Both the position numbers and the translations under genes were made by a program. Of a stretch of DNA of 64,000 bases, positions 8,170 through 47,931 are shown piece by piece. This DNA comes from Candidatus Stahliibacteriota bacterium (GTDB taxonomy: Bacteria; Hydrothermota; Tepidihabitantia; SM23-42): positions 55 through 64,054 of the forward strand of contig JAUWCU010000003.1 in assembly GCA_030609135.1 (NCBI GenBank), in the 5' to 3' direction. The notes below the pieces were generated by a model. The model was not told where the DNA came from, made no database searches, and was given only the letters and a program-made list of their open reading frames with translations. Position 1 is the stretch's first letter, and each line of letters opens with the position of its first letter.

Positions 8170-8222
8170 TATGTAATTCTATATACATTTAGTTAAATTT
8201 CAAGGGTTATTTATCCGCACTT

Positions 8223-8436
8223 TGTAGTTGCTCGATTCATCGAGCATTGCCTGATAAATCAGGGGACTACATTATGCCTGATTCAGCGTGGGCTTGAGCG
8301 TGGAAAGTGTAGTTGCTCGATTTGCCCATACTTTGTAGTTGCCCAATTTATTGGGCTTATGGCCATGTTCATGTCCGATAAATCCCGCAATTCTATTTAT
8401 AGAATTATAATACGAAGCGGGATAAATCGGAGAACT
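8223..8436. repeat. nested hairpin-repeat cluster upstream of the OMP-thi4 unit
   Basis: tgtagttgctcgattcatcgagca. gcctgataaatcagg. tgtagttgcccaatttattgggc. gataaatcccgcaattctatttatagaatt..gcgggataaat. Confidence 0.65.
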
Positions 8437-10987
8437 ACTCAATTTTGGTTTTCAGGAAATCAATTGCTTCTGCGACCTTTTTTGGATCGCCACCGCCGCC
8501 TTCTGCCATATGGGGTCGACCACCACCCCCGCCGCCAAGGATTTTGCTGACATCTTTGATGAGCTTGTTAGCAGGGTATTTTTTTACTAATTCATCGCCG
8601 ACAAATATTAAGAAGTTAATTTTACCCTTTGTCTTCTCATAGAAAAAACCCGCTGCTTTTTTAGATTTTTCTCTTATTAAATCAGCTACCAGACGCATTC
8701 CCTGACCCCCATAATTTTTGAGTTCTTTTGCGACAAAATTGCTTTTTTCCTCCCACATTTTAGCAAGTAGAACCATTGCTTCACTGTGTGTGAGTTGAGC
8801 AAGGGCTTCCTGGAAAGATTTCTCTGTTTCCTTGAATTTCTGTAGCGAATCAGAAATCCAGCTAACCAAATCGACATTCTTCCCGCCGACCAAATTTGTG
8901 ATTTCCTTGAGAATAGTTTCGTTCTTACGCAATTCCTCAAATAGCCTCAAGCCGACAATTGCTTCTACCCTACGTATACCAGCAGCTGCAGCTTCCTGCG
9001 AGATAATTTTGAAGAGACCAATTTGACCGGTATTATCAAGGTGGATCCCTCCACAGAGTTCAATTGAGAAATCATTGATCTTAACCACCCTGACTTTATC
9101 ACCATATTTCTCGCCGAATATCGCCATTGCACCGAGTCGCTTTGCTTCATCCAATGTTGTATTGAATTTTTCAACGGGTATATTGTCCAGGACCTTTTCG
9201 TTTACTGTATTTTCAATGACATTGATTTCATCGTTGCTCAACGGCTTAAAGTGCGAAAAGTCAAAACGGAACCTTCCTGGTTCAACAAATGAACCTTCCT
9301 GGCGGGCATGTTCGCCAAGGGTTTTCCTGAGCGCAGCATGGAGTAGATGGGTTGCCGTATGCGCACGCGCGCTTTCTTTGCGTTTCCTTAAATCTACCTC
9401 AGCAACAACTTTGCCAGGTGTAAACTTACCTTGAGCAAGTTTGCAATGGCATACAATCATGCCCTGGTACCAGTAAGTATCCTGGACTATCAATTTATAG
9501 GTTTTTCCGACAATTTCACCTTGGTCGCCTACTTGACCTCCAGCCTCAGCGTAAAAAGGTGATTCTTTTAATACTATCTCAATGATCTTTTCATGCGCAT
9601 TGAATTTTATTATTTTGGTTTCAACGCTGACTTTATCGTAACCAACGAATGTGCCATTTTCATCGTTTAAGATAGTCCACTCACCCTTGGGAATGAATTT
9701 TGTTTCTGCTTTTGAGATCTCGCGGGCTTGTTCAAGCTTAGCCATGAAGCCTTTTTCATCAACACTAATACCTTTTTCCTTGGCTATTTCCTGAATTAAT
9801 TCAATGGGGAATCCGTATGTGTCATAGAGCTTGAAAGCTTCTTCTCCAGAAATGGAGTTGTGGGTTTTGCTTATTACTTCAAATTGCTGTAATCCTTTTT
9901 CCAACGTGGTTAGAAATCGTTCTTCTTCTGATTTTATAATAAGAGTAATTTCTTCTCTTCTTTCAACTAAATCAGCATATGCAGGTTTATACATATCTAT
10001 AACCCTCGGTACAAACCTGTAGAGAAAAGGGTTGTTTATAGCCAGATTTCGACACAATCGGACAGCCCTACGTAAAATCCTTCGTAGCACATACCCGCGT
10101 TCTTCATTTGAAGGGATAATACCATCACCTATTGCAAAGACTAATGCCCTGACGTGGTCTGCCATCACATTGATAGCTACATCAATTCTTCTATCTTCAC
10201 CATATTTCAAATTCTTGTGTTTAATAATATCCTCAATAATAGGATAAAACAGGTCGGTCTGAAAAACCGAGTCCTTATTTTGCAGGATCGCTGCAAGTCT
10301 TTCAAAACCCATGCCCGTATCCACCCCGCGGTTCTTTAGAGGTAATCTTTCGCCGGCTACGGTCTGGTTAAACTGGGGGAATACCAGATTCCAGATTTCC
10401 GGATACCGGTCGCAGTCGCAGCCCGGTACACAAGTTTTCTTACCGCAGGAATATTTCTCGCCAAGGTCAAAAAATATTTCTGAGCATGGTCCACATGGTC
10501 CAGAATTCCCCGCCGGTCCCCAGAAGTTATCCTCATCACCAAACCTGAAGATTCTTTCTTTTTTCAAACCAATCTTCTTATGCCAGATATCATATGCCTC
10601 ATCATCATCCTTATATACTGAGACAGACAATCTGGTCGGGTCGATTCCCAGTACCTCAAGCAGGTATTCCCATGCCCATAAAATAGCCTCTTCCTTAAAA
10701 TAGTCGCCAAATGAAAAATTGCCCAGCATTTCAAAGAACGTATGGTGGCGTCTGGTCTTTCCCACATTATCTAAATCCGATGTCCTGAAACATTTTTGCA
10801 CACTTGTTGCGCGTTTATACGGCAGGAGCACAGAGCCTGTCCACAAAGGTTTAAACTGCACACAGCCGGCACTTGTGAACAATAGACTCGGGTCATCTTT
10901 CGGAATCAATGACATTGAAGGAACAATAGTATGGTCCTTGTTTTTAAAGAATTCTAAGAAACTCGTGCGCAGTTCGTTACTATTCAT
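8435..10987 (-). CDS. alaS: alanine--tRNA ligase
   Basis: 850 aa. Class II AlaRS catalytic core, editing-domain HxxxH...CGGxH motif (HTATHLLHAALRK..., ELCGGIHL) and C-terminal DHHA1 region are all recognisable. Confidence 0.95.
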   Translation of the reverse strand: MNSNELRTSFLEFFKNKDHTIVPSMSLIPKDDPSLLFTSAGCVQFKPLWTGSVLLPYKRATSVQKCFRTSDLDNVGKTRRHHTFFEMLGNFSFGDYFKEEAILWAWEYLLEVLGIDPTRLSVSVYKDDDEAYDIWHKKIGLKKERIFRFGDEDNFWGPAGNSGPCGPCSEIFFDLGEKYSCGKKTCVPGCDCDRYPEIWNLVFPQFNQTVAGERLPLKNRGVDTGMGFERLAAILQNKDSVFQTDLFYPIIEDIIKHKNLKYGEDRRIDVAINVMADHVRALVFAIGDGIIPSNEERGYVLRRILRRAVRLCRNLAINNPFLYRFVPRVIDMYKPAYADLVERREEITLIIKSEEERFLTTLEKGLQQFEVISKTHNSISGEEAFKLYDTYGFPIELIQEIAKEKGISVDEKGFMAKLEQAREISKAETKFIPKGEWTILNDENGTFVGYDKVSVETKIIKFNAHEKIIEIVLKESPFYAEAGGQVGDQGEIVGKTYKLIVQDTYWYQGMIVCHCKLAQGKFTPGKVVAEVDLRKRKESARAHTATHLLHAALRKTLGEHARQEGSFVEPGRFRFDFSHFKPLSNDEINVIENTVNEKVLDNIPVEKFNTTLDEAKRLGAMAIFGEKYGDKVRVVKINDFSIELCGGIHLDNTGQIGLFKIISQEAAAAGIRRVEAIVGLRLFEELRKNETILKEITNLVGGKNVDLVSWISDSLQKFKETEKSFQEALAQLTHSEAMVLLAKMWEEKSNFVAKELKNYGGQGMRLVADLIREKSKKAAGFFYEKTKGKINFLIFVGDELVKKYPANKLIKDVSKILGGGGGGRPHMAEGGGGDPKKVAEAIDFLKTKIE

Positions 10988-11148
10988 ATATCTATCCCCC
11001 TCTCTTTATCTCTCCCCCTTTGAAGGGGGAGAGAAAGGTGGGGGTTCGTTCGGAATTTACCGGACATTATTGTGATTCCTATGATTGAAAAATTGTCAAG
11101 CCCAGAAGGGCTTTCCCACAATATGTGGGAGCGGGCTGCCCGCGATTA

Positions 11149-16183: not shown

Positions 16184-16445
16184 AAGATTGTAGTGGTCGG
16201 ATTCATCCGACATTAATAAAAATGTGCAATAAATTGCACCGCTACAATTATTAATTGTACAACCATCTGAATATTGACATCTGTACTTTTTAATTTGTTC
16301 AAAGATAAACCCCGTAGGACATTTGCTGTCCAACGGGGTAAAGCCTTCTCCACGGTTCAAATTAGATACAAAAGCTTTTTGCTTTAGCAATAGCTGTTCT
16401 ATTTTATACATATCACCGCGGAGAAGACTTTACCATTATCTCTAT

Positions 16446-21190: not shown

Positions 21191-21318
21191 GTAATTGTTC
21201 AATTTTCAGTGGAGAAGCGTAGTTGCGACATTTATGGCGTCTATTTATGTGGCATATCGAGACTTTCTGCACGATGAATCGTGCGACTACAATGTTCCAC
21301 CAAGTTTTGAACAATTAC
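21191..21318. mobile_element. MITE-like element, copy 1 (12-bp terminal inverted repeats GTAATTGTTCAA / TTGAACAATTAC)
   Basis: A second copy lies at 62661-62818 with the same termini and internal blocks (gtagttgcgacatttatggcg ... cacgatgaatcgtgcgactaca ... ccaccaagttttgaaca). No coding capacity. Confidence 0.65.
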
Positions 21319-21326
21319 TTAGCCTC

Positions 21327-21354
21327 TTGACACCTTATTAACACTTGTTATAAT
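21327..21354 (+). promoter_or_regulatory. sigma70-type promoter (TTGACA-N16-TATAAT) giving a leaderless transcript for the downstream lipoprotein gene
   Basis: TTGACA at 21327-21332, TATAAT at 21349-21354, ATG at 21361 (6 nt after the -10, no SD). Confidence 0.5.
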
Positions 21355-21360
21355 ACTTAT

Positions 21361-22773
21361 ATGAAGAACATAGTATATATAGTTCTATCAGTAATTTTGG
21401 TCGTGAATTGTAGTGAAATGGAGACCAAGTGGGAAGTAAAATTCGAACCAGCAGGTCCAGGTAATTATCGAATCAATGGGATTTCTTCTTCAAAGACATA
21501 TACTACTCCAGACAACTACGACCACCGAGTCAAAGGAGTTCCTTGTTCAAGGACACATTCTTATGTTGTTACTGGGGCATTTTGGGAAGATAAGCAGGAA
21601 TCAGTCTGCATTACTGCAAACTATGATGCTAATGGTGAACTCATCTGGCACACAGTCTATGAATCGCATGGCTTGAAATCTTCGAAAGGAAATGCTATCC
21701 GTACCATCACAGGTGAAATTGAAGAGGTTAAACATGACATTTATGTACTAGCACAAACCACTGACTTAAAAGGTATCAACGCCGTAGTCCTGATACAATA
21801 TGACAGCCTTGGTAATATGCAATGGGACAAGGTTATTGAAAAATCCCGAGGAGAGATAACGAGTGTATTGCTGAACGACCACTTGAATAACCTCTATATA
21901 GCGGGCTGGACAAGTAATTCCGCAAATTCTACAGATATCTTCATTGCCAAATATCGACCTTCAGGAGAACTGGCTTGGTTGAACAAATATCATAACCCTC
22001 CTCTTGTTTTTAATACCTTAGTGTTTTGCTCTAGCAAGAATGACCAGTTTCTGGTTGCCGGTCATCTGAGACATAACAAGGATTTCTTTTTCATGAAATA
22101 TGATAGCCTTGGGAAACTTGTGCATCTGACAAAGTGCGAAACTTCTATGCAGGAGATTTCATTGGCAGATGCACAACTTGATGAACATGGTAATGTTTAT
22201 CTTCTGGGCACAACCCACAACAATAAAACTGGCAAGGATTACGTAACTGTAGTCTATGATAAAAACGACAGTCTCCTATTTGAGAAATGCTTTGATGGAC
22301 CAACGCATCATGACGATGTCGCCAATGCCTTGATTGTGGAGGATTCGTACGCGGGGTCATTGTATGTCTATGCTATCGGCAGCAGTGAGAACGAAAATGG
22401 CGTGAGTGAAGTGCTTACCGTGAAATATGATCTAACCGGCAACGAAATATGGACAAAAGCATTCAAGGGGAGAAAAAACGAATCAGCAAAACCCTATCTG
22501 CACGGTCCCAGAATAATCTATTCTCCAACACAGCACGGCGTCAATAATTTCTACATAACCGGATATGTGGGCGATGATGCATTGGTTTTGAAACACAATA
22601 CTAAAGGATTTATTTCCTGGTTTACAAGATACGCAAAGGTTGGCACAGTATGCAAGCCAACCGCATTCAGAAGTTTCTGCGTTGGTATAGAAAGCGTGTC
22701 AGATAAGGGGTCTGATGCATACTTAATAAAATTCGGAAAAACTGAACAGCTCGGCATTATCCGCTGGGATTAA
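21361..22773 (+). CDS. lipoprotein with beta-propeller-like repeats (SBBP/PQQ-like), hypothetical
   Basis: Signal plus lipobox (LVVNCSE). Repeated G-x-x-x-W blade-like motifs (GELIWHTVY, GNMQWDKVI, GELAWLNKY, GNEIWTKAF). Confidence 0.45.
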   Translation: MKNIVYIVLSVILVVNCSEMETKWEVKFEPAGPGNYRINGISSSKTYTTPDNYDHRVKGVPCSRTHSYVVTGAFWEDKQESVCITANYDANGELIWHTVYESHGLKSSKGNAIRTITGEIEEVKHDIYVLAQTTDLKGINAVVLIQYDSLGNMQWDKVIEKSRGEITSVLLNDHLNNLYIAGWTSNSANSTDIFIAKYRPSGELAWLNKYHNPPLVFNTLVFCSSKNDQFLVAGHLRHNKDFFFMKYDSLGKLVHLTKCETSMQEISLADAQLDEHGNVYLLGTTHNNKTGKDYVTVVYDKNDSLLFEKCFDGPTHHDDVANALIVEDSYAGSLYVYAIGSSENENGVSEVLTVKYDLTGNEIWTKAFKGRKNESAKPYLHGPRIIYSPTQHGVNNFYITGYVGDDALVLKHNTKGFISWFTRYAKVGTVCKPTAFRSFCVGIESVSDKGSDAYLIKFGKTEQLGIIRWD

Positions 22774-22826
22774 CTTCTCACTACGCCATTATGCCAATTG
22801 GCGAATTACCGTAGTGCGAGAATGTG

Positions 22827-24278
22827 CTAATGAATTGTTTCTCGTATCAATTTTGTACTACGGCAGGATTTTCTTTTGATCGTAAATACTGCATGCATTT
22901 GTTTGGCTACAGCCCTTGCTTTTGATCGGTTGTCACAAATGATTTCTATTAAACATTCGCCTTTTTTTACATAATCACCGATTTTTTGGTTGACTTTAAA
23001 TCCACATGATGGGTCGATTTTGTCTTCCTTTTTAAGTCTACCCCCACCCAATTGTACGAGCAACATGCCGATATCAAAAGTATCAATATGATGTATATAC
23101 CCTGTTTGTTGTGCTTTGATTTTAATTCTATTTTTTGCTACTGGTAAACGTGAATAATCATCAATGATACGAACATCACCACCCTGATAATGAATAATCT
23201 CTTTAAATTTATTTAAGGCTTCACGGTTTGCTATCTTTTTCTCAAGGAGGTTTTTCCCGCCTTTAATTTTAGCGAGCTTAAGCATTGCCTTGCCAAGCTC
23301 GAACGTGACTTCCATCAAATCCTTTGGACCACTGCCCTTTAGCGCCTCGATCGTTTCAATAATCTCTAAAGAATTGCCTATATAGTTACCTAATGGATTA
23401 TTCATATCAGTTAGGATGGCGATGACTTTAACTTGGAATCCCCCGTTGCTTGCGGCGTGGGATGAGATATAATACTCCCTCTCCCTTGAGGGAGAGGGTA
23501 GGGGTGAGGGTGAAATTGAAAGTAAGATACCCTGCCCCAAGGGGCAGGGAGCTTCATTCTTTTTGCAACGAGAGTCTCGTTGCACTCCAAAGCGTTTGCC
23601 GATTTGAATCATGGTCCGCGCAAGCTTTTTTGCTTTTTTATAATCAGTCATGAATGCGCCACTGCCAAATTTCACATCGAGCACCAGACCATCGAGATTT
23701 TCAGCAAGTTTCTTAGACATTATGCTTGCGGCAATGAGAGGGATTGAATCAACCGTTGCTGTTACATCGCGCAAGGCATATATTTTTTTGTCAGCGGGCG
23801 CAATTTCTCCGGTTTGTCCAATCATGGCAACGCCAAGTCTTTTTAACTGGCGCTTGAATGCTTTGAGCGTTAGATTAGTACGAAACCCGGGGATTGATTC
23901 TAATTTGTCTAAAGTACCACCTGTATGACCCAGACCGCGACCCGAAATCATGGGCATACAGATACCACATGATGCCATCAAAGGTGCCAGAATAAGTGAT
24001 ACCTTATCACCGACCCCGCCCGTAGAATGCTTGTCGATCTTTGGCTTTTTAATTTCTGAAAGGTTGAGCATCTTTCCAGTGTGCATCATGGCTTGCATCA
24101 AATCAGTGGTTTCGTTAATATCCATACCCTGAAAATATACCGCCATTAAAAAGGCAGCCAGTTGATAGTCAGGGATATTGTGTTTTGTGTATTCAGAAAT
24201 CAGATACTTTATTTCGTGTTCATTTAATTTTTTACCATCACGTTTTTTACGAATAATATCAAGGACGCTAAATTCCAT
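22827..24278 (-). CDS. pdp: thymidine / pyrimidine-nucleoside phosphorylase carrying a ~50-aa in-frame insertion
   Basis: N-terminal region matches the family (DYQLAAFLMAVYFQGM, KHSTGGVGDKVSL, MISGRGLGHTGGTLDKLESIPGF). The C-terminal ...LTDMNNPLG block is also present. Between IGKRFG and VKVIAILTDM lies an extra segment encoded by three GC-rich hairpins (23434-23583). The likely start is Met29 (MEFSVLDIIRKKRDG). Confidence 0.85.
   Translation of the reverse strand: MEFSVLDIIRKKRDGKKLNEHEIKYLISEYTKHNIPDYQLAAFLMAVYFQGMDINETTDLMQAMMHTGKMLNLSEIKKPKIDKHSTGGVGDKVSLILAPLMASCGICMPMISGRGLGHTGGTLDKLESIPGFRTNLTLKAFKRQLKRLGVAMIGQTGEIAPADKKIYALRDVTATVDSIPLIAASIMSKKLAENLDGLVLDVKFGSGAFMTDYKKAKKLARTMIQIGKRFGVQRDSRCKKNEAPCPLGQGILLSISPSPLPSPSREREYYISSHAASNGGFQVKVIAILTDMNNPLGNYIGNSLEIIETIEALKGSGPKDLMEVTFELGKAMLKLAKIKGGKNLLEKKIANREALNKFKEIIHYQGGDVRIIDDYSRLPVAKNRIKIKAQQTGYIHHIDTFDIGMLLVQLGGGRLKKEDKIDPSCGFKVNQKIGDYVKKGECLIEIICDNRSKARAVAKQMHAVFTIKRKSCRSTKLIRETIH
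23434..23583. repeat. triple-hairpin repeat element inserted in-frame within pdp
   Basis: Three consecutive hairpins: ccctctccc-ttga-gggagaggg, ccctgccc-caag-gggcaggg, ttgcaacgaga-g-tctcgttgcaa. Related GC-rich hairpins occur in intergenic DNA at about 11010-11033 and 25600-25640. Confidence 0.7.
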
Positions 24279-24912
24279 TACACCCCATAGCTTCGCGCAA
24301 TCGCTTGCACGATGCGCATTTACCGCACATTTCTTTTTTGCCAAGATAGCACGAGTAAACATATTGGACAGGCGCCTTGTATTTTAGTCCGAGTTTGTAG
24401 ATTTGTTTCTTTGTATATTCAAGAACAAAGCTCCTCACCTTAACCTTGGTAAGTGTGCTGAACATTAGGGCGTGGTTTATTGCTGCCATGAATTGTGGTC
24501 TGTTGTCCGGGAATTCTTCGGCTTCTTCGCGGTTAAACCCTGTAATAATGAACTCGGCGCCTAAATATTCTGCATAACACGCCGCAATATTTATGAAAAG
24601 ACCATTTCTGTTTGGAATCCAAACGTTCTTTAAGTTGCTAAATTTCCTAATCCTGACATTTTTGGACTGAAGCATAAGGAGTTTCTTGAATTCTTTGAAA
24701 AAAGGTATTTTGATAACCTTGTGTTTGATTTGTAATGCCTTACATATCTTTCTGGATGCGGAAATTTCCATTTTTGCAGCCCGTTGGCCATAATCAAATG
24801 TTAGCGCAAATAGCGGTCTTGTTTTCTTCTTGGCTATTGTCGCGCTGACTAAGGAGTCAAGACCGCCGGATAGGAGGATGATGCTCTTCAATTGGCGAGA
24901 TTGCTTCGTCAT
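24268..24912 (-). CDS. queC: 7-cyano-7-deazaguanine synthase QueC
   Basis: PP-loop SIILLSGGLDS. C-terminal zinc-binding Cys cluster CGKCASCKRL. The ORF-track N-terminal extension (to 25101) is translated from repeat DNA, so the start is more likely the internal Met (MTKQSRQLK...). Confidence 0.85.
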   Translation of the reverse strand: MTKQSRQLKSIILLSGGLDSLVSATIAKKKTRPLFALTFDYGQRAAKMEISASRKICKALQIKHKVIKIPFFKEFKKLLMLQSKNVRIRKFSNLKNVWIPNRNGLFINIAACYAEYLGAEFIITGFNREEAEEFPDNRPQFMAAINHALMFSTLTKVKVRSFVLEYTKKQIYKLGLKYKAPVQYVYSCYLGKKEMCGKCASCKRLREAMGCNGI

Positions 24913-24957
24913 TTCATTCCTCGCAATGACAAGGAGAGAGGGGTTCCTCGCAATGAC
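24908..24957. repeat. tandem duplication (2 x ~25 bp, ttcctcgcaatgacaaggagaga) of the GTCATTGCGAG-family repeat
   Basis: Visible as ...ttcctcgcaatgacaaggagagaggggttcctcgcaatgacaaggagagatg... Same family as 25137-25175, 34180, 34365, 39190, 39656, 47978. Confidence 0.6.
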
Positions 24958-25173
24958 AAGGAGAGATGAGTATTTTCGAATGACGCAAGGAGTAGGGGCT
25001 TTAGCCCCGTCGTATATCGAAGCTTTGAAGATGTGAGGCTCAGAACCTCTGAACTTCTCAACTTCGAGATTGCTTTGGGGCTGCGTGTCTTGCAATGACA
25101 AGAATGGTGGGTATTCTTTGCCCGACCGATGAGTGTGTCATTGCGAGCCTGAACGAAGTTAAGGCGTGGCAAT

Positions 25174-25533: not shown

Positions 25534-25804
25534 TATCTCCCCCTAATATAAAACACCTCCACCCACTGAAACAATACTGAAATGATATTCAGCACAAGGT
25601 TCAGGGCAAGCTTTTTCCTCCCCCTTCCAGGGGGAGGAAGACAGTTTGCAGTCTTTTCCTTGTGGGAAAGCCCTTCTGGGCTTGATATTCGCGGGCAGCC
25701 CGCGCCGCTTCGCAAGGCGAGGCCGGGCAAGCCCGCTCCCACTATGCAAATGCCTAAAACACCTAAACCCCGTTAGATGTGTACTATCTAAATGGGGTAA
25801 ACAC

Positions 25805-29472: not shown

Positions 29473-29811
29473 GCCCAGATTATATGGAAAAATCCCTCAA
29501 TGTAAAGTATATTCATAAATCTGACATGTTGTAGTCCTGACAGGCATTTGCAGAGTAAACTCTGCCACTACAGAATGTGCGAAATATCACTGTCCCGCTA
29601 TGCGGGATCTTCGATTTTCCTATAGTGTATGCTAATATGATAAATCCCGCAATTCAATTTATAGAATTACAATACGAAGCGGGATAAATAGGGCGGAGAG
29701 AGTAGATGGAGTGCAACGGCTTGCCGTTGCATGCAGTAGCAAGCTACTGCACTCCGTAGCAAAATCAAGGGATAAGGGATAAAGATGTGTCCAAGGTTTC
29801 TTAATTAAAAG

Positions 29812-32138: not shown

Positions 32139-32404
32139 CGAACAATAATGATTTTATACTTCGAGCGACCATGAGTTTTACGAATGAGAGTCGAGAATCG
32201 AGCGTTAATAATTGTAGTTGTCCAATTTATTGGACAAAACCTGATAAATCCCGCAATCCTATTCATAACATCATAACACGAAGCGGGATAAATCACCTGT
32301 CTGCGTGCGATGCACAGGCAGGCCTGTCTACCTCAGGCAGAGGCGACTCGAACAATAATGATTTTATACTTCGAGCGACCATGAGCTTTACGAATGAGAG
32401 TCGA
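32139..32404. repeat. composite repeat locus: 56-bp direct repeats (32139-32194 and 32349-32404) flanking three nested hairpin-repeat modules
   Basis: The direct repeat is cgaacaataatgattttatacttcgagcgaccatgag(t/c)tttacgaatgagagtcga. The interior holds a GTAG-headed hairpin (tgtagttgtccaatttattggaca), a GATAAATCCCGC...GCGGGATAAAT palindrome, and cacctgtctgcgtgcgatgcacaggcagg. Confidence 0.6.
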
Positions 32405-34026: not shown

Positions 34027-34473
34027 CTGCAAATACGTCTTCAACAATTCAACAGGACTATTGTCATTACGAGTGTAGTCGAGAACCCTCAACATGATTA
34101 TTGTTCCTCTCACCTTGTTCGAGACAGGCGAGCGAAGTTGAGAACTTCCGCAATATGGGTGATGGCCCTAGATAAAAATGTCATTGCGAAGGCGTAGCCT
34201 GAAGCAATCTCACCTCCTTTTGTCAATCAAGCGCGTGAGGGCATAGTATTTGTAGTGGTCGAGTTTACTCGACAAACATCCCTGCACGCTACGGTATTTG
34301 TGCAGAGCAAGCTCTGCCACTACATATGTTGGGGTAGGTCTTTACACGAGCGGGACTCTGTTTCATGTCATTGCGAATCCGCCGCGTCATATAGCGGACA
34401 AAGTCCCGCAATGCAAGGATCCTCGATTTTCATTTATTAGAAATATATAGTACGGAAAATCGGGATAGTCTCA

Positions 34474-35557: not shown

Positions 35558-36373
35558 ATGAAGTTATATTATGCCAACTCCACATTGGACAATGCTCAAG
35601 TTATCATCCTTGGTCTTGGTTATGATAGAACTTCATCATTTATCCCTGGTTCGCGATTTGGACCCGAGTTTATAAGATTATGTTCTAATAATATTGAGGA
35701 ATATTCACCATATCAAGATAAGAGTCTTTGTAATGTGAACATATGTGATTGCGGGGAGGTAGAGTTTGACACAAAAGATTGGGTCTTAAAAGCGCGTACC
35801 GCAGTCAAAGAATACATAGATGAACAGAAATATCTCATTGCACTCGGCGGAGAGCATACGATTACCTTACCGATTACTCAAGTCCTAAAAGAGAAATATG
35901 AAAATTTTTCACTGGTTCATTTTGATGCTCACTGTGATCTACGCGATGAGTATCTTGAGCAGAAAATCTGCCACGCTACAGTGATGCGCCGGGTGAGCGA
36001 TATTATTGGGCTTGATAATCTATACCAGTTTGGTATTCGTTCAGGAACCCAGGAGGAATTTAGTTTTGGCAAGAACCTGTACAAATTCGATCTTTTTAAA
36101 CCTTTATCTTCAGTAATAAACAATATCAAAGAACCTATTTATCTATCAATAGATGTGGATGTTTTGGACCCGGGAGTATTACCGGCAGTTTCCACACCTG
36201 AACCAGGCGGGGTTTCATATCAGGAGTTTATTAAAGCACTGCTATTATTTAAAGACAAGAAAATACTTGGAGCTGATATTGTTGAATACAACCCTTTCGC
36301 TGCCTCACCATATGCGTCAGGCTCCACTGTCGCTGAGATACTGCGGGAGCTCATTCTGGTCGGAACTCCCTGA
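35558..36373 (+). CDS. speB: ureohydrolase (agmatinase/arginase family)
   Basis: Mn-binding motifs GGEHTIT, HFDAHCDL, SIDVDVLDP, and S/TPEPGG. The speB symbol is tentative (arginase, formiminoglutamase or guanidino-hydrolase are alternatives). Confidence 0.65.
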   Translation: MKLYYANSTLDNAQVIILGLGYDRTSSFIPGSRFGPEFIRLCSNNIEEYSPYQDKSLCNVNICDCGEVEFDTKDWVLKARTAVKEYIDEQKYLIALGGEHTITLPITQVLKEKYENFSLVHFDAHCDLRDEYLEQKICHATVMRRVSDIIGLDNLYQFGIRSGTQEEFSFGKNLYKFDLFKPLSSVINNIKEPIYLSIDVDVLDPGVLPAVSTPEPGGVSYQEFIKALLLFKDKKILGADIVEYNPFAASPYASGSTVAEILRELILVGTP

Positions 36374-36391
36374 TCCAGGTAAGTTTATAGT

Positions 36392-37080
36392 ATTCGTAGT
36401 GGTCGAGTTCACTCGACAAACATCCTTGCACGCCACGGTATTTGTGCAGAGCAAGCTCTGCCACTACATGTGTTCTTGATTCGTTCCAGTATCCAACCCA
36501 AACCCTTTTTCCATACTCACAGTTATAGTCGCTCGATTCATCGAGCCAATCTAATGGAGCGTCTGATAAATCAGACAACTACAAAGATTAATCAAATTGT
36601 TACATCATATCATTGTAGTTGCTCGATTCATCGAGCCAATTTACGCGGAAAGCCCCTCAGACTAGCATAATTACTGTTTCTCTCACCTTGTTCGAGACAG
36701 GCGAGCGAAGTCGAGAACCACCCTTTGCATTTTTCGCCGCCCAATTCATCCCGCTTCGTATTGTAATTCTATAAATAGAATTGCGGGATTTATCGGGCCA
36801 ATTTACGCGGAAGTATGTAGTCGCTCGATTCATCGAGCCAATCTAATGGAGCGTCTGATAAATCAGACAACTACAGCGCAGCGTATCTTCAGTGAAACGT
36901 GTCTCCAGCGTAGCGTGTCTTCAACAGAGTGTGTTCTCCATTTCTCCCATACTCCTTTTGTCGATCAAACGCGTGAGGGCATAGTATTTGTAGTGGTCGA
37001 GTTTACTCGACAAACATCCCTGCACGCTACGGTATTTGTGCAGAGCAAGCTCTGCCACTACATGTGTTCGGAATTCCTAA
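36392..37080. repeat. largest cluster of nested small hairpin repeats (about 700 bp, non-coding)
   Basis: Multiple GTAG-headed hairpins (tgtagtggtcgagttcactcgac, tgtagttgctcgattcatcgagc x3, tgtagttgtctgatttatcagac x2). One reversed GATAAATCCCGC element. The tctcaccttgttcgagacaggcgagcgaagtcgagaac element (also at 34100-34145). Duplicated 75-bp block 36392-36466 = 36985-37060. ORFs called here (36153, 36351, 36470, 36846) are repeat-derived. Confidence 0.7.
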
Positions 37081-39016: not shown

Positions 39017-39382
39017 GTCTGCTGTCATTGCGTAAGTATTTAATAATTGTAGTGGTCGAGTTTACTCGACAAATATCCTTCACGCTGCTTTTGCCCAACT
39101 GTAGTTGCCTCTGCCTGAGGCAGACAGGCCTGCCTGTGCGTCGCACGCAGACAGGTGATTTATCAGGCTGCATCAATCCGCCATCTTATGTCATTGTGAA
39201 GGCGAAGTCCGAAGCAATCTCCAAAAAAGAGATCGCTTCGTTCACACTCGCGATGACAGGAAAAAAATGTTACTGCGAGCGGAATCGAGAACCTTCAGCA
39301 GTAGTATAATATTGTTCTCTCCGTTGCTCCGATACTCCCTTTCACCGTTTCTCCCATTCTCCTGTTCTTGCCCGTTATCACG

Positions 39383-41678: not shown

Positions 41679-42578
41679 ATGCTGGCAACTAATCTTACCG
41701 TTCATATAGATTCTTCCTACATCCCTTGGCGAGTTCAAGCTGGAGAAGAACCACAGTATTTGTGGCGCTGGGCAATGGCATACGGTGAGTCATACTGGCG
41801 GAATTTTTATGCCTGCACCACCAAGGTGCAATGCCTGCGGAATTATGCAGACACAACTTATGACGACACCTATTTTGATGGTGTCTTTGTTGACAATTTG
41901 CTCCACTTCGTTGATGGTTTGAGTTATGGTTACAACATTTATCCTGCACAATATCGTCCTTATCCGGATACCAATAACTTTGCACAATGGGATGCAAACT
42001 TACGTGCGGCAGTAGATACTTTTGTGCAAACAGTAAGCGCTGAATACCATAACCCTAACACACCTTCTGGTCATCCTTGCGAGGTTTTAGCAATAGGCAA
42101 TACAAACCGGGCACATTTGGTGGATGAATATGCTACTTTATGGAAAAATTTTCTGCAATATCTGGATGGCGCAGTGGAAGAATCTGATTTTGCGCGTGCT
42201 GATATAGAATTTGGTCGCTGGCAGAGAATGATTCATGAAATGGCGATTGCCGAATCATTGGGCAAGATATGCCTCATTCATGTGCCCTGTTCCACAGAAT
42301 TTTATAGTCCTAATGACCCTTTGAGTGTCTACTATTATGACTCAACTCAGATGATTTATGGTTTTGCAAGTTACTTGATGGCTTACGATTCTGTGAGTCA
42401 TTTCGCTTTAAATAAGAATCTTTCTCCCAATTATGCCCATATCTACTGGGCACCGATTTTTTCAATTTGTTCAATTTCTGAATTGGTGAATAGGCGGTTT
42501 CGGAATAGATATTTCGGCTTAAATGTTTCTGGAGATTTTCCCATAAAACAATTATACATATTTTTTGCGAGAACTTAA
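41679..42578 (+). CDS. N- and C-terminally truncated paralog of the 45127-47931 secreted protein (possible gene fragment)
   Basis: Homologous to residues ~175-470 of the 934-aa paralog but lacks a signal peptide. Shares a 103-bp identical DNA tract (41763-41865 = 45646-45748). Ends at a TAA immediately followed by a G9 run. Confidence 0.4.
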   Translation: MLATNLTVHIDSSYIPWRVQAGEEPQYLWRWAMAYGESYWRNFYACTTKVQCLRNYADTTYDDTYFDGVFVDNLLHFVDGLSYGYNIYPAQYRPYPDTNNFAQWDANLRAAVDTFVQTVSAEYHNPNTPSGHPCEVLAIGNTNRAHLVDEYATLWKNFLQYLDGAVEESDFARADIEFGRWQRMIHEMAIAESLGKICLIHVPCSTEFYSPNDPLSVYYYDSTQMIYGFASYLMAYDSVSHFALNKNLSPNYAHIYWAPIFSICSISELVNRRFRNRYFGLNVSGDFPIKQLYIFFART

Positions 42579-42587: not shown

Positions 42588-42758
42588 TAATATGAGGACC
42601 TTTTTATCGAAACAATTATCGGTAAAAATTTTAAGACCCCAAAAAGTGCATTCGCGTGTTGACAAAGACAAAACCAATGATTATAATTATAATATGAATT
42701 TTGATACCACGAAGTTTTGGGGAAAATTAAATTATTACTAAAAAGACAAGGAGGAAAT

Positions 42759-45069
42759 ATGAAAAGAGTGGTCATTGGGATATGTGCAATAGTGATAGGG
42801 TTTATGCCCTTGTCCATCTATGGTTCTGAAATTGCAACTGTAACTTTGGAAACCTGGATGAATGCTTCCCAGGGTTTTGAACCAAACCTTGGTCAGATTG
42901 GCGATTTTGAAGGGAATGTGGTTAATAATATCTTGTGCGCTTTCAAGGGTAATGGACTTGGTATATTCATTAATGAAAAAGGGGTAAGTTATGTTATTTA
43001 TCAAGCGGAAAAAATCTTAAGAGATGAGTCCCAGAGAATTGATTTAAGAGAACCTGAAAAAAATCTTATCCACTATGCAAGGATTGATGTGGAGCTTGTG
43101 AATTCCAATTTTGAAAAGTCAAAAATCGTTTATGAAGATGAGCTACCCGGATATGCGCATTATTATTTGCCACAATGTCCTGATGGTATTCTTTATGTGA
43201 AAAGTTTCAGAAAGGTGCGGATTAAAGAGATATATCCGGGCGTTGACTGGATATGGAAATATGAAGATGGACGGTTGCATCATGAATTTGAGGTCAAACC
43301 TGCGTCTGATGTTTCAAAGATAAAGATGAAGGTTAAATGGGCTGATGTTGAGATAAGCGAAAATGGTAGAAAACTTATATATTCTACGCCACTTGGTAAG
43401 ATAAAAGATGGAAATATACTTGGTTATGAAAATCCGAAATCCAAAATCCGAAATCCGAGACCGATTGATATTTCTTATATAAAAAATGAAGATGGGATAA
43501 TTTCCTTTGAAATAAAGAATTATTCCGGTAAAAATCCTCTAATTATTGACCCACCCCTTGCACTATTATGGGGGACATATTACGGAGGCAATGATCCTGA
43601 TCGTGGCTATTCAATTACAACCGATAATTCAGGTAATATTTTTGTAACTGGGACCACTTATTCAACAGAATTTTCCCACACAAGACCCCGGTGGTGGTGC
43701 TTATTATCAAGGTACAAAAGCAGGATATTTTGATGTATTTGTTTTAAAGTTTACAAATACAGGGGTTCGGCTTTGGGCGACATATTACGGAGGAAATGAC
43801 AGAGATGGGGGCGCTTCAATTATAACTGACAATTCAGGTAATGTTTTTGTAGGTGGAACCACCTATTCAACAGATTTTGCCACACAGGACCCTGGCGGTG
43901 GTGCTTATTATCAAGGAACATTTGCAGGTGTTGGTGATGCATTTATTTTGAAGTTTACAAATGTTGGTATTCGCCTCTGGGCAACATATTACGGCGGAAA
44001 TGATAGTGATATGGTGTGTTCGATTACCACTGATAATTCAGGTAATGTTTTTATAACTGGGTGGACTCTTTCAACAGATTTTCCCATACAGGACCCTGGC
44101 GGTGGTGCCTATTATCAGGGAGCAAATGCAGGTTATAGAGATGCATTTATTTTGAAGTTTACAAATACGGGTGTTCGTCAATGGGCAACGTATTACGGAG
44201 GAAATGCTGGTGATTGGTGCAATTCAATTACAGCGGATAGTTCAGGTAATGTTTTTATAGCCGGATACACCTATTCAACAAATTTCCCCACATATGACCC
44301 CGGGGGAGGTGCTTATTATCAGGAAACACTTGGAGGTGTTCATGATGCATTTATTTTGAAGTTTACAAATACCGGTGTTCGGCAAAGGGCGACATATTAC
44401 GGCGGAAATAATGAGGATATGTGTAATTCAGTTACAACTGATGCTTCAGGTAATATTTTTGTGACTGGATACACTTTTTCACCAGATTTTCCCACATATG
44501 ACCCCGGGGGAGGTGCTTATTATCAGGGAGCACTTGCAGGCGGATATGATGCATTTGTCTTGAAGTTTACAAATAGCGGTATTCGCCAATGGGCAACGTA
44601 TTACGGAGGAAATGATGTGGATTGTGGCTTTTCAATTAAAACCGATAATTCAGGTAATGTTTTTGTAACTGGACTAACTGTTTCAACAAATTTCCCAACA
44701 CAGGACCCTGGCGGTGGTGCTTATTATCAGGGGACACATGCAGGTGTTGGTGATGTATTTCTTTTGAAGTTTGAAACTTCACTGGGAATTGTAGAGGAAA
44801 ATACTAAAAAGAATGAGCCTTCGGTTCTAATTATTTCTTCTATCTTTATCAACAGAATACGAATAGACCTTTCATTATCTTCTAAAAAACCCATGGCTCT
44901 TATCCTTTATAATTTATTGGGGCAGAAAATCTTTTCAAGGTCTTATCCTGAAACTAAGTCTCTTATTATAAGAGGCAGAGAGATTGAAGAATTGAGTAAA
45001 GGAATATATTTCTTATCTGTCTATTCAGGAAAAAAAGAGATTGGCAGGGTTAAGCTGATAAAGAGATAA
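42759..45069 (+). pseudogene. SBBP (beta-propeller) repeat protein with T9SS C-terminal domain, disrupted by a +1 frameshift near 43669-43670 (assembly error not excluded)
   Basis: ORF-track pieces 42717-43733 and 43948-45069 are one gene. The repeat [16 protein letters not shown]...WATYYGGND reads through in the alternate frame after an extra A in tcaacagAAttttccc (other repeats have tcaacagAttttccc). Six ~204-bp tandem repeats. The likely real start is ATG 42759 after AAGGAGG. C-terminus ...[22 protein letters not shown]. Confidence 0.6.
43560..44780 (+). repeat. six tandem ~204-bp (68-aa) intragenic repeats encoding SBBP blades
   Basis: The tattacggaggaaatga core recurs at about 43579, 43786, 43987, 44196, 44397, 44601 with high nucleotide identity. 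Confidence 0.8.
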
Positions 45070-45126: not shown

Positions 45127-47931
45127 ATGGGGCGATTTAAGGTAATTCTTATCGTGATTGTAATCTATTTAATGGCTCAGATTGTTTTTGCTGAGCCCAC
45201 CGCAAAGACTTATATCTTTGCCGCATCCCAATATATGTTTTACCATCCCTGGTATGGTGGAAACCCTCTGGATTCGCTTTGCAAACACTTTGATGTGATT
45301 ATCTTTCATGACTGGAATAGGGATACAATCCCTACGATTCGGGATAGCACAAAAGTAGAATGGCGTAGAAATAATGCGCCAATACTTTTATTGTATAAAG
45401 ATGCAATGACTATATGTGGTCCAGGTCGTCCCTGGCATCCTGAACCAGACCCGACAATTGGTGGTCGTGAAACTGTTGGTGGGTATAATCATTTTGATTC
45501 GTTATTAAAGCAAAATTACCCGTCAGATACTTTCTTTATGTTAGCGACGACCGTAGGTTCTCAGCAAACTTCCCATTATGATACCATCGTTATCGGTAAT
45601 GATACTCTGCATCGTGTCAAGGCTGGTAGTGATCCCTCCTGGCAGTGGCGCTGGGCAATGGCATACGGTGAGTCATACTGGCGGAATTTTTATGCCTGCA
45701 CCACCAAGGTGCAATGCCTGCGGAATTATGCAGACACAACTTATGATGATACCTATTTTGACGGTGTACTCATTGATAATTTGTTACCCTTAAGAAGTCT
45801 GCATGGCTTATATCCACAACAATATCCCGACAATAACAGTTTTAGAGAGGCGGTTTATTCTTTCACCCAGACCGCCTGCTCTGAATATCATAATCTTACA
45901 TCACCTCCGGGTAATCCCCGTTCAATTCTTGGTACTGGCAATTTGAACTATATTTACTTAACACCTCTAAGTGATACAGTATGGAAAAAGCTTCTCCATA
46001 TTTTAGATGGCGGTATGGAGGAAGGCTCAGATGGCTTACACAGATTGTCTTTTAATGACTGGCATAGAATTATGCAGGAAATTGCAATGGCTGAATCTTT
46101 AGGTAAGATATCTTTTATACGTGAGGCAGTTGACTCATGCGAATACGATACAATTATCAATCCCTTTGGATTACTTTCGTTTAGTTCTACAAATCTGATG
46201 TTTGGTTTTACAAGTTATCTTATGGTCTTTGATTCTATGGCGCACTTCTATTTTTGTCCACGGGAAGGTCCGCATTACGCGTTTATCTGCTGGGCGCCAG
46301 TCTTAGATATTGATATTGGTAAGCCAATGGGGCGGTACATCCTGACCGCAGACACCCTCGCATATCGTTATTATGAAGGTGCAGCAGTATTTGCCAATCC
46401 GTGCAGTCTTTCATCAGTAACTGCAGGTTTCCCCGGTGATACTTTGTTGTTCATAAAGACAGCATCCTGCACAGTGGATGTTACAATTGACCAGTTAATA
46501 CTTCCTTCTCATACAGGGGTAATTGGACTTTATCCATTAAACTATTTCCAGGCAAGCGGTTTTGAGCCTGATGACCGTTTGTGCTGGGAGAACTACTGTC
46601 TTGAGGTTGAGGGGGTTACAAATTGCTATGCAAAAAGAGTGCAGGGTATTCCGCCAAACGGTGTGACACCACATTCCGGTCAATGGATGTATAAGGTTTA
46701 TGGTCAGGATGAGAGCACTGATACAAGTTTTGTCAGCTTCAAGGTCTTTCCGTACGATGTGCTGATTGAAGATCCCACTTATCTGTCTTTCTGGATATAT
46801 GTTGAAGATGCACCCGGCGATTCAGCACCGATTGGTATAGACTGTCTACTAAAGAGCGGCAAGCGGTTGAGTGAGTGGACAAAATTTGGCACGATTTTAG
46901 ACCAGTATGGTAAAGAAATAAATCCCGCTGACCGCCGTGTGCCCGAAGGTGCGTGGTATCAATATGTGTTTACATTTAACCCGGCAGTCAACGAAACGAT
47001 TGACCACATTGAGTTGGTTTATGATGGCTCGCAGATTTCAGAGACCGGCGATTTTTGTGCGTATATTGATGATATAGAGATACTAACTCAATTCCCGATA
47101 CTCGATACCTGGTATGCGGAGAAGTTTCCGGTTGGCAGTCCCATCAATAATCCTAACAATTATGACCCGAACTTCTATATGAACTTCATTGCTCAAGGCG
47201 ATTCTGTTAGATTGATTATCAATCCACAGGGTGATGGTGGTGAGGGTGCGCACTGGGTTAACCCGGCGCCAGGGATTAGAAACAACATTACTGATATTTC
47301 TGTTGATTCATTCACAACAGTCATCTGGAGTCAGTATGATAAGGCACACAGTCTGATTCTTTCGCTATTTGTCCATGATAACCAGGAGAATAACCGATGG
47401 CTTATGTATGCAAAGAATGCGAGCAATTGGTGGCCACAAACCGGCTGGGTTGATATGGGAGATACGGCGAGGCATTATAATATGTGGGAAGGGTTTTTTA
47501 GGAACATTAGAGATGATTATACTGCGGAATACGGCGGTGAAGTTGAACCCGAATCTATCATAGAGTTGAGACTGGAGCACTTTGCCCGGTCAGAATGGGT
47601 TGGTGATTCCGGTGGGACAATCAGGAATCTTTTCATCGTGCCCTTCACCCAGGAATTTACCATAAATCAAAATCAGACCTATACCAATATGCCATATGTA
47701 GCACTGAGGACCAAAGTGACTTCTGAGATTGTGGACTCAATGAATATCCATCAGGATTATAGCGATTCGCTTACGGATTCTACTGGCTGGATTGCCTATG
47801 ATACTTCCTATTGCTGGTATCTGCGAGAGGGAGAAGGAAACAACACAGTTTATATTCAATACAAGGTTGGTGGTTTCAGCGAGAGTCCGGTCTATTGCGA
47901 TACCATCATCTTTGATAAAACTTTGACTTGA
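45127..47931 (+). CDS. large secreted hypothetical protein (signal peptide; paralog of 41679-42578)
   Basis: 934 aa. N-terminal MGRFKVILIVIVIYLMAQIVFA. No recognisable catalytic motif. SD GGAGGTG upstream. Confidence 0.5.
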   Translation: MGRFKVILIVIVIYLMAQIVFAEPTAKTYIFAASQYMFYHPWYGGNPLDSLCKHFDVIIFHDWNRDTIPTIRDSTKVEWRRNNAPILLLYKDAMTICGPGRPWHPEPDPTIGGRETVGGYNHFDSLLKQNYPSDTFFMLATTVGSQQTSHYDTIVIGNDTLHRVKAGSDPSWQWRWAMAYGESYWRNFYACTTKVQCLRNYADTTYDDTYFDGVLIDNLLPLRSLHGLYPQQYPDNNSFREAVYSFTQTACSEYHNLTSPPGNPRSILGTGNLNYIYLTPLSDTVWKKLLHILDGGMEEGSDGLHRLSFNDWHRIMQEIAMAESLGKISFIREAVDSCEYDTIINPFGLLSFSSTNLMFGFTSYLMVFDSMAHFYFCPREGPHYAFICWAPVLDIDIGKPMGRYILTADTLAYRYYEGAAVFANPCSLSSVTAGFPGDTLLFIKTASCTVDVTIDQLILPSHTGVIGLYPLNYFQASGFEPDDRLCWENYCLEVEGVTNCYAKRVQGIPPNGVTPHSGQWMYKVYGQDESTDTSFVSFKVFPYDVLIEDPTYLSFWIYVEDAPGDSAPIGIDCLLKSGKRLSEWTKFGTILDQYGKEINPADRRVPEGAWYQYVFTFNPAVNETIDHIELVYDGSQISETGDFCAYIDDIEILTQFPILDTWYAEKFPVGSPINNPNNYDPNFYMNFIAQGDSVRLIINPQGDGGEGAHWVNPAPGIRNNITDISVDSFTTVIWSQYDKAHSLILSLFVHDNQENNRWLMYAKNASNWWPQTGWVDMGDTARHYNMWEGFFRNIRDDYTAEYGGEVEPESIIELRLEHFARSEWVGDSGGTIRNLFIVPFTQEFTINQNQTYTNMPYVALRTKVTSEIVDSMNIHQDYSDSLTDSTGWIAYDTSYCWYLREGEGNNTVYIQYKVGGFSESPVYCDTIIFDKTLT

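Follow-up and report, generated by a model that had tools for sequence, protein, structure and literature searches.

In-frame hairpin repeats of separate families at one loop site of a thymidine phosphorylase gene in Candidatus Stahliibacteriota

How a conserved metabolic enzyme comes to carry, within its own reading frame, palindromic DNA of an intergenic type is the question raised by pdp, the pyrimidine-nucleoside (thymidine) phosphorylase (PyNP) gene of a Candidatus Stahliibacteriota bacterium. The coding sequence (CDS) occupies positions 22827-24278 on the minus strand of a 64,000-nucleotide stretch (GenBank assembly GCA_030609135.1, contig JAUWCU010000003.1, positions 55 to 64,054), which as a whole is referred to here as the window. 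An earlier note on this DNA had pointed out three GC-rich hairpins inside the open reading frame (ORF) of pdp and had taken them for a single triple-hairpin element of the kind known as Rickettsia palindromic elements (RPEs). The three hairpins are present, and all of them are perfect. They are not, however, one element: sister genomes hold only the third of them, and the three belong to different families: one is a repetitive extragenic palindrome (REP) associated with a REP-associated tyrosine transposase (RAYT), one is part of the BoxC/TM_ECO triplex motif, and one is a simple G+C palindrome. The reading that we favor, at a probability of roughly 0.7, is that small selfish or structural hairpin repeats were added stepwise at a single loop site of pdp, giving a nest that resembles a bacterial interspersed mosaic element (BIME).

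The pdp ORF can be extended upstream to an ATG at 24362 (22827-24362), which yields the 511-aa protein assumed previously. Because the closest orthologs begin with MEFSVLD, the ATG at 24278 was taken as the likely start instead, giving a product of 483 aa; the 28 codons upstream of it overlap queC. All three PyNP Pfam domains (Glycos_trans_3N, Glycos_transf_3, and PYNP_C) were found in the product, which matched the PyNP structure PDB 1BRW with an E value of 8e-120. Its best homologs were metagenome proteins, followed by proteins of candidate divisions WOR-3 and TA06, and a metagenome-assembled genome (MAG) of Candidatus Stahlbacteria has segments 95% identical to the window. The alignment with 1BRW is split (query residues 33-260 and 313-510, in 511-aa numbering, against chain residues 3-230 and 232-432), and therefore about 51 extra residues fall between chain residues 230 and 232. 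The insert of some 50 residues proposed before was thus measured at 51 aa, both from this gap and from an alignment of 111 orthologs.

Structure prediction with AlphaFold (AF2) gave a predicted local distance difference test (pLDDT) score of 42 when a 17-sequence alignment was supplied; the 111-sequence alignment was used instead and gave 88. The resulting model agreed with 1BRW at a TM-score of 0.95 (normalised to 1BRW) and a root-mean-square deviation of 1.8 Å. Scores below 50 were confined to residues 232-280, and the insert was placed between helix 213-233 and strand 284-291. Mapping the insert onto a phosphorylase structure, as had been suggested, therefore returned an unstructured loop in an otherwise confident fold. 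According to this model, the insert falls in the loop that leads from a helix into the N-terminal end of a β-strand in the α/β domain; folding of the enzyme is probably retained, the 51-residue loop being disordered. The phosphate- and pyrimidine-binding and catalytic motifs lie within invariant alignment columns, and the enzyme would be expected to be active. Gene-wide dN/dS values against relatives (0.08-0.23) point to past constraint on pdp and are uninformative about the time since the recent addition of 126 nt described below.

Compared with orthologs whose site is empty, the entire insert spans 23430-23582 on the minus strand (153 nt, 51 codons, Q233-V283 of the 483 aa). It is free of stop codons in the pdp frame, so that the ORF is open throughout, and two of the three sense frames are open through it. 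The hairpins are perfect inverted repeats at 23477-23498 (hairpin 1; 10-bp stem, 2-nt loop), 23530-23549 (hairpin 2; 9-bp stem, 2-nt loop), and 23564-23584 (hairpin 3; 10-bp stem, 1-nt loop). Folding of a 181-nt stretch gave -35.5 kcal/mol, compared with -21.6 ± 3.3 kcal/mol for shuffled sequences (z = -4.3), and none of 200 shuffles folded as stably. The 64 kb contain 15 perfect hairpins with stems of 9 bp or more (shuffled sequence gave 0-5), of which three are in the insert, and these three are the sole G+C-rich hairpins of that length within any long ORF of the window. When hairpins of at least 8 bp were counted, 16 of 24 were located in the ~17% of the window that is non-coding.

When hairpins 1, 2, and 3 were searched across the window at up to three mismatches, only self-matches were recovered. 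The relatives that had been named at 11010-11033 and 25600-25640 proved to be different, polypyrimidine/polypurine hairpins, and the genuine window relatives of hairpin 3 lie at 29708-29755. Rfam returned nothing near any gathering score on 23300-23700, and Pfam reported no family in the pdp product beyond the three PyNP domains, the 51 aa being of low complexity. A structured RNA, an intron, an intein, and ribosomal bypass were each considered and rejected, as the insert is open, in frame, and short and has no matching motifs. A miniature inverted-repeat transposable element (MITE) was likewise rejected, given that neither a 126-nt nor a 153-nt unit has terminal inverted repeats.

The states of the site in relatives show how the insert is layered. 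Lineage specificity, a further part of the earlier proposal, held up: 105 of the 111 aligned orthologs have an empty site without any insert, four carry 9 residues (QRDSRCKKI and variants), one carries 26, and the window carries 51. At the DNA level, among the related loci (L numbers), L013 is empty and reads GGA GTA|AAG GTC. Loci L001-L006, L008, and L009 read GGA GTG CAA CGA GAC TCT CGT TGC AAA AAA ATT|AAA GT and thus hold an identical 27-nt, 9-codon insert, which is hairpin 3 alone. Sister genomes with only QRDSRCKKI are 84-91% identical in amino acid sequence to the window pdp, which has 42 more codons, and protein P0047 (L011) has two tandem REP-type hairpins at the site (78 nt, 26 aa). 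The window matches the 27-nt state through TGC AAA AA, continues with 126 nt (23433-23558 on the minus strand; codons N241-Q282) found only in its lineage, and rejoins at GTT AAA GTC. Each increment at the site is divisible by three. The junctions of the 126-nt block show only an ambiguous 3-nt AAG on both sides and no clear target duplication. Because sister genomes have hairpin 3 without the 126 nt, the insert has two layers, an older hairpin-3 REP and a younger 126-nt block, and was built in at least two steps.

The older layer is a GGAGT-tagged REP at 23559-23588 on the minus strand (tag, 23588-23584; hairpin, within 23564-23584; A-run, 23563-23559). It reads GGAGT-GCAACGAGA-c-TCTCGTTGC-AAAAA, and the Gly-Val codons that its tag overlaps existed before it. 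Loci L001-L006 have a 215-codon gene between queC and pdp. This gene scored 107 bits against NCBIfam REP_Tyr_transpos NF047646 (cut-off 80) and 36 bits against Pfam Y1_Tnp (cut-off 23), and its best PDB match was Escherichia coli TnpA_REP (4ER8), the alignment covering both the HUH motif and the Y...NPVKHG region. By homology, the gene directly upstream of pdp in the sister genomes is thus assigned as a RAYT of the Y1 HUH family. It is located at 9307-9954 in L001, is found also in L002-L006, and occupies 3-602 in L013. Its flanks are GGAGT-GCAACGAG... upstream and an inverted GGACT-GCGACGAG... downstream, and the same REP family borders the RAYT in L001-L006, L012, and L013. In L001, three forward copies (CTATGGAGTGCAACGAGTCCTCTCGTT...; 9277-9400) stand before the RAYT and one inverted copy (GGACTGCGACGAG-TCT-CTCGTTGC; 9957-9983) stands after it. 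All listed copies are perfectly paired despite differences in their stems and have the tag GGAGT/GGACT and a GC...GC frame in common. Hairpin 3 of pdp belongs to this family.

In L013 the RAYT is present at 82% identity, yet the pdp site is empty with GGAGTA already in place. In L012 (5757-5880) the RAYT is internally deleted, with the REP flanks on either side and the initial 14 codons remaining; the N-terminal extensions of proteins P0004 and P0018 arose because gene callers fused RAYT/REP remnants of this type to pdp. A tblastn search with the RAYT found no match in the 64-kb window. At the queC end and pdp start of the window, 24268-24292 on the minus strand (GCTATGGGGTGTAATGGAATTTAG, compared with GCTATGGAGTGCAACGAG... 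in L012) is suggestive, and only suggestive, of a remnant of the RAYT 5' REP. The pdp REP itself differed among relatives by 0-1 change per 24 nt, compared with differences of 20-37% at 4-fold sites (P = 2e-5 to 5e-3); the copy in L012 has four changes, compatible with neutral decay.

Outside pdp, the window holds an intergenic inverted REP doublet of the GGAGT family at 29708-29755, with the same tag and GC...GC-A frame, reading GGAGT-GCAACGGC-tt-GCCGTTGC on one strand and GGAGT-GCAGTAGC-tt-GCTACTGC on the other. Its stems differ from that of the pdp copy by compensated changes and are perfectly paired, and one copy of the doublet has an ortholog in L012. Three REP copies were found in the 64-kb window and four to five per sister locus of ~20 kb, the latter all near the RAYT or in pdp; a scan of viral contigs for the REP gave no match. 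As a separate observation, the loop of the RAYT-proximal REP is ~28 nt longer in L001 (9340-9400) than in L012 (5762-5790), which represents a further nested insertion.

The younger layer contains, at 23477-23510 on the plus strand, the intrastrand-triplex motif known as BoxC, PIT, or TM_ECO, which consists of hairpin 1 and a G-rich third arm and reads CCCTCTCCC-TTGA-GGGAGAGGG-TAG-GGGTGAGGG; conserved BoxC flanks reach ~23473-23517. This segment is an exact fit to the consensus CCCTCNCCC N3-6 GGGNGAGGG N3 GGGNGAGGG and the sole match in the window, and no match was found in 100 shuffles. On inspection, the duplex CCCTCTCCC/GGGAGAGGG with antiparallel GGGTGAGGG gives only G*G.C, A*A.T, and T*A.T triads, and the three 9-nt blocks are predicted to be able to form a purine-motif triplex. 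A literature search with the sequence string returned no bacterial paper, and the identity of the motif came through a blastn match to E. coli, where BoxC was found in 4235 of 5426 complete genomes, for example in the phnD-phnE spacer.

In a scan of one genome per species, the BoxC pattern (36-mer) was present in 43 loci from many phyla; flanks included, the element is found in E. coli and in at least 10 phyla. The hosts include Phycisphaera, Gastranaerophilales, Micavibrio, Dehalococcoidia, Anaerolineales, Armatimonadota, Burkholderiales, Syntrophales, and Desulfobacteraceae, as well as three contigs of a Stahlbacteria MAG. Copies among these loci are frequently in inverted pairs and frequently right after stop codons, and two of the 43 loci are clear cases of BoxC in frame: L024 has it within an Inositol_P domain, and L038 has it in a linker of a type ISP restriction enzyme. 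The 5' flank AACT, the 3' flank TGAAATG, and the loop TTGA recur in hosts ranging from E. coli to Chloroflexi and WOR-3, and these non-triplex parts would be better accounted for by common descent or horizontal spread than by structural convergence. No RAYT was found beside any copy when the sampled BoxC loci were searched by tblastn, and a viral-contig scan gave a single BoxC match, in a G+C-rich contig. In a Dehalococcoidia MAG (L053, 1676-1713), BoxC lies between two CaiB-like CoA-transferase genes and is stop-free, giving a joint ORF of 833 codons. Two copies in the Stahlbacteria MAG JAUVZL01 (L018, 6541-6650; L040, 759-870) have more than 70 nt identical upstream and ~20 nt downstream, so that BoxC belongs to a larger repeated unit in that genome.

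Hairpin 2 (CCCTGCCCC-aa-GGGGCAGGG; 23530-23549) is a perfect 9-bp palindrome, 80% complementary to hairpin 1, one compensated pair apart from the BoxC hairpin, and without a third arm. It takes the position of the second BoxC in inverted pairs such as that of the E. coli phnD-phnE spacer, and possibly represents the partner hairpin of an inverted BoxC pair from which the third arm is missing. Alone, it had more than 120 matches in Joint Genome Institute (JGI) metagenome contigs, in unrelated contexts (terminators, other mosaics) with no flanks in common, so the bare palindrome says nothing about family membership. The composite of hairpin 1 followed by hairpin 2 had no match in those contigs. 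When the block was compared by blastn-short with the window and all loci, the ~40-nt BoxC module was the only shared part, and the remainder of the block outside BoxC and hairpin 2 had no relatives there; a weak imperfect hairpin at its far end (23438-23463), which appeared only in the minimum-free-energy and centroid folds, had none in any locus searched. Among 5.8 billion predicted proteins, none shared words with the peptide encoded by the block.

These observations lead us to propose a two-step history. In the first step, which would be old and common to the sister species, a 27-nt REP of the GGAGT family would have been inserted directly 3' of an existing GGAGT. Its mover, we infer, would have been the RAYT encoded directly upstream of pdp in the sister genomes, acting by single-strand cut-and-paste in the style of IS200/IS605 without target duplication. 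Insertion by the IS200/IS605 family leaves no such duplication. In the second step, which would be recent and confined to the window lineage, the 126-nt block with BoxC, its partner hairpin, and flanks would have been joined at the 3' edge of the REP, through either hairpin-targeted insertion or replication stalling and template switching at the hairpin. Persistence of the pieces would be favored by lengths in multiples of three, by the lack of stops in the frame used, and by the location in a loop.

Several results weigh against this history. No donor of the 126-nt block turned up in the window, the related loci (~130 kb), or metagenome contigs of the JGI, and the boundaries of the block are ambiguous by a few nucleotides, with a flanking repeat of only the 3-nt AAG. 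Insert-bearing and empty orthologs are interleaved on a neighbor-joining tree, and therefore repeated gain, precise loss, or recombination is needed. The window is without a RAYT, so the second step is not attributable to a local enzyme, and no transposase has been found associated with BoxC (PMC4666352). The described REP superfamilies are tagged GTAG or CGTC, whereas the tag here is GGAGT. The junction of the block on the REP side was seen in the window alone: Logan contig L007, which is 100% identical to window 21198-23519 and was reported from two samples, covers the 3' half of pdp and 86 nt of the block and ends inside it. In addition, hairpins 1 and 2, each with the following U-rich tract, score as terminator-like on the sense strand, and such internal hairpins may impair pdp expression.

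An alternative for the younger layer is that the block was copied by replication error or repair, through a stalled fork, template switching, or illegitimate recombination from an intergenic segment. We hold this to be possible but tentative. It accords with the behavior of BoxC/TM_ECO as indel hot spots of E. coli without an associated transposase, with the mosaics of such modules that make up intergenic regions of the window, and with the position of the block next to an existing hairpin and A-run; the break of the Logan contig within the block is also what would be expected if part of it were repeated in the sample. The missing donor locus counts against a copying event as well, and a transposase-free origin leaves the near-identical BoxC flanks (AACT..., ...TGAAATG) across phyla unexplained. 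A bolder proposal is that BoxC/TM_ECO is mobile and that the 126-nt unit was inserted at the REP hairpin by a Y1 transposase, either RAYT or IS200-like; its basis is the comparison of the sister genomes with the window, in which the BoxC-bearing unit abuts precisely the 3' edge of the RAYT-type REP. We consider this unlikely; if true, Y1 transposases that use hairpins as landing pads would explain both the near-identical BoxC from E. coli to Planctomycetes and WOR-3 and the growth of repeat mosaics by accretion.

A different doubt concerns the gene rather than the route. PyNP is a salvage enzyme and usually dispensable, so the insert could have inactivated pdp, leaving a young, still-open pseudogene or a transcript cut at the new hairpins. 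With two of three sense frames open, the open frame is no strong evidence of selection, the 126-nt layer is too young for dN/dS, and the terminator-like scores of hairpins 1 and 2 with their U-rich stretch have been mentioned. Set against these points, the gene runs for 1452 nt without a stop or frameshift and with all catalytic motifs intact, the fold is predicted to be intact with the insert as an external loop, and inserts of 9 and 26 aa persist at the same site in diverged, otherwise conserved orthologs. Moreover, PIT/BoxC has no terminator activity in E. coli (PMC4666352). Inactivation thus seems improbable to us, and functional impairment of pdp in general is judged no more probable.

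That one composite mobile element, an RPE-like or MITE-like triple hairpin, was inserted as a single unit is very unlikely and already largely refuted. The three hairpins are contiguous, the entire insert is in frame, and RPEs are themselves ~100-150 bp long and lie in frame within enzymes. Hairpin 3 alone, however, occupies the same site in sister genomes, the pieces come from separately known families, neither terminal inverted repeats nor a clear target duplication was seen, and no second copy of either a 126-nt or a 153-nt unit was found in the window, the ~130 kb of related loci, or the JGI metagenome contigs. Further copies of the block, which the earlier note had proposed to count, were accordingly not recovered in any of these, and only the BoxC module recurred among the loci. 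An assembly chimera, in which a repeat-induced misjoin put intergenic repeats into pdp, is very unlikely: assemblies do break at repeats, contig L007 stops within the block, and look-ups of the exact product in a protein collection found no record of either pdp start variant (511 or 483 aa), but the same frame continues on both sides of exactly 126 extra nucleotides, L007 comes from a separate assembler and joins the 3' half of pdp to the block, and the REP side is identical to six sister assemblies up to the A-run.

The preferred reading, a stepwise nest of repeats, has counterparts in known systems. Di Nocera et al. (2013; PMC3733652) described GTAG- and CGTC-tagged REPs, usually extragenic and sometimes wholly inside ORFs, where they occur singly, as dimers encoding 20-30 aa, or as clusters encoding 43-82 aa; RAYT genes accompany the GTAG type, and CGTC families were reported in Chlorobi and Bacteroidetes. 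Intragenic REPs were catalogued there in several species, so that precedents exist outside Rickettsia, although the earlier note was aware of none for an FCB-group organism. The pdp insert shares with them tagged palindromes within the ORF of a known protein. It differs in its GGAGT tag, in a WOR-3/Stahlbacteria-like host outside the survey of that paper, in combining REP and BoxC in one cluster, and in the graded series at one site. As in the REP/RAYT (TnpA_REP) and REPIN systems (Bertels & Rainey 2011, PMC3116915; Ton-Hoang 2012, PMC3333891; Messing 2012, PMC3479197, structure 4ER8), a single-copy Y1 HUH gene is bordered by inverted copies of its presumed substrate hairpin, the 5' tag is conserved and unpaired, and an inverted doublet occurs (window 29708-29755). 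Unlike in those systems, copies appear to be few (~1 per 20 kb of the DNA seen), the tag is another one, one copy is inside a CDS ~0.7 kb from the RAYT gene, and the window lacks the RAYT while L012 has it in internally deleted form.

For BoxC/PIT/TM_ECO, Holder et al. (2015; PMC4666352) reported that the triplex forms in vitro and not detectably in vivo, that the motif has no promoter or terminator activity, that it is always intergenic in E. coli MG1655, and that it marks indel-prone sites with local insertions and deletions; TM_ECO was counted there in proteobacterial genomes, and earlier BoxC work (Bergler 1992; Hoyne/Maher 2000) is considered here as cited in that paper. The copy in pdp agrees in its exact consensus, and the family members agree in their inverted pairs and local insertions or deletions. 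In contrast to the described members, the motif is translated within pdp and in L024 and L038, and it occurs also in Planctomycetota, Chloroflexota, Armatimonadota, Melainabacteria, Stahlbacteria, and others. The intergenic habit is not kept in these genes, and intergenic location is thus a habit of the BoxC family and not a structural requirement.

RPEs (Ogata et al. 2000, as summarised in PMC10969869 and PMC3733652) are palindromic repeats found in frame in unrelated housekeeping enzymes and judged compatible with fold and function; each is a single unit of ~100-150 bp, encodes a conserved peptide, and is present many times per genome. The likeness claimed for pdp is therefore partial. It holds for intergenic-type palindromic DNA placed in frame, in a lineage-specific manner, in a loop of a conserved protein where the model predicts compatibility with the fold. 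It fails for the single repeated unit, since the pdp insert combines two layers of different family origin and its block had no second copy in the sequences searched; the comparison is one of architecture and not of sequence. With the BIMEs of E. coli, pdp shares different small palindromic modules side by side, whereas BIMEs are extragenic and made of REP variants and the pdp mosaic is intragenic and translated.

Since in-frame palindromic repeats, REP/RAYT, and BoxC have each been described already, the pdp case is clear and its novelty modest. What is new, at a modest level, is the host lineage, the GGAGT tag, the nesting of REP and BoxC in one coding loop, the graded site series beside a RAYT, and BoxC in coding sequence and outside Proteobacteria; in the DNA examined, BoxC/TM_ECO extends beyond both that phylum and intergenic DNA. 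At a single codon position the locus displays four natural states, from an empty site through one REP and two REPs to a REP joined by the BoxC block, and in sister genomes a presumptive transposase gene lies next to pdp. Such a series is useful for studying how REPs choose their targets (here 3' of GGAGT) and for asking whether an existing hairpin attracts further repeats, and it provides a measure of how much foreign loop is tolerated by a TIM-unrelated α/β enzyme. For annotation, low-complexity stretches such as 'SPSPLPSPSRERE' or 'PLSLQGEGRGEG' in otherwise good proteins are translated repeats and not errors.

Other repeats were noted in the window. Intergenic hairpin mosaics occur at 2520-2680, 8200-8440, 16187-16212, 29540-29700, 32205-32310, 34214-34333, 36358-37075, and 39032-39080, and many of their hairpins have a GTAG tag before the stem (for example TGTAGTGGTCGAGTTTACTCGACA, TGTAGTTGCTCGATTCATCGAGC, and GGGATAAATCCCGC); by this tag they are classed as BIME-like arrays of classic GTAG-type REPs. 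A long 5' extension of the queC ORF (24905-25101) is built from repeat modules, with CCTCGCAATGACAAGGAGAGA present twice, a 64-nt repeat common to 2451-2514, and the peptide SLLVIARN encoded twice; queC probably starts near 24903, at an ATG inside a repeat module, and a look-up of its exact product in the protein collection found no record. Dispersed repeats of 147 nt (41762-41908 and 45645-45791, 93% identical) and 53 nt (34093-34145 and 36666-36718, 92% identical) were also found. At 43569-44784, within the ORFs 42717-43733 and 43948-45069, five to six tandem 204-nt units with 76-81% identity look like a protein of repeated ~68-aa domains. Finally, the segment 11009-11050, just after a stop codon, holds a polypyrimidine/polypurine hairpin of 12 bp (TCTCTCCCCCTT/AAGGGGGAGAGA) with a G-rich tail (AAGGTGGGGGT) behind it, and may be a second, different motif of the intrastrand-triplex type.

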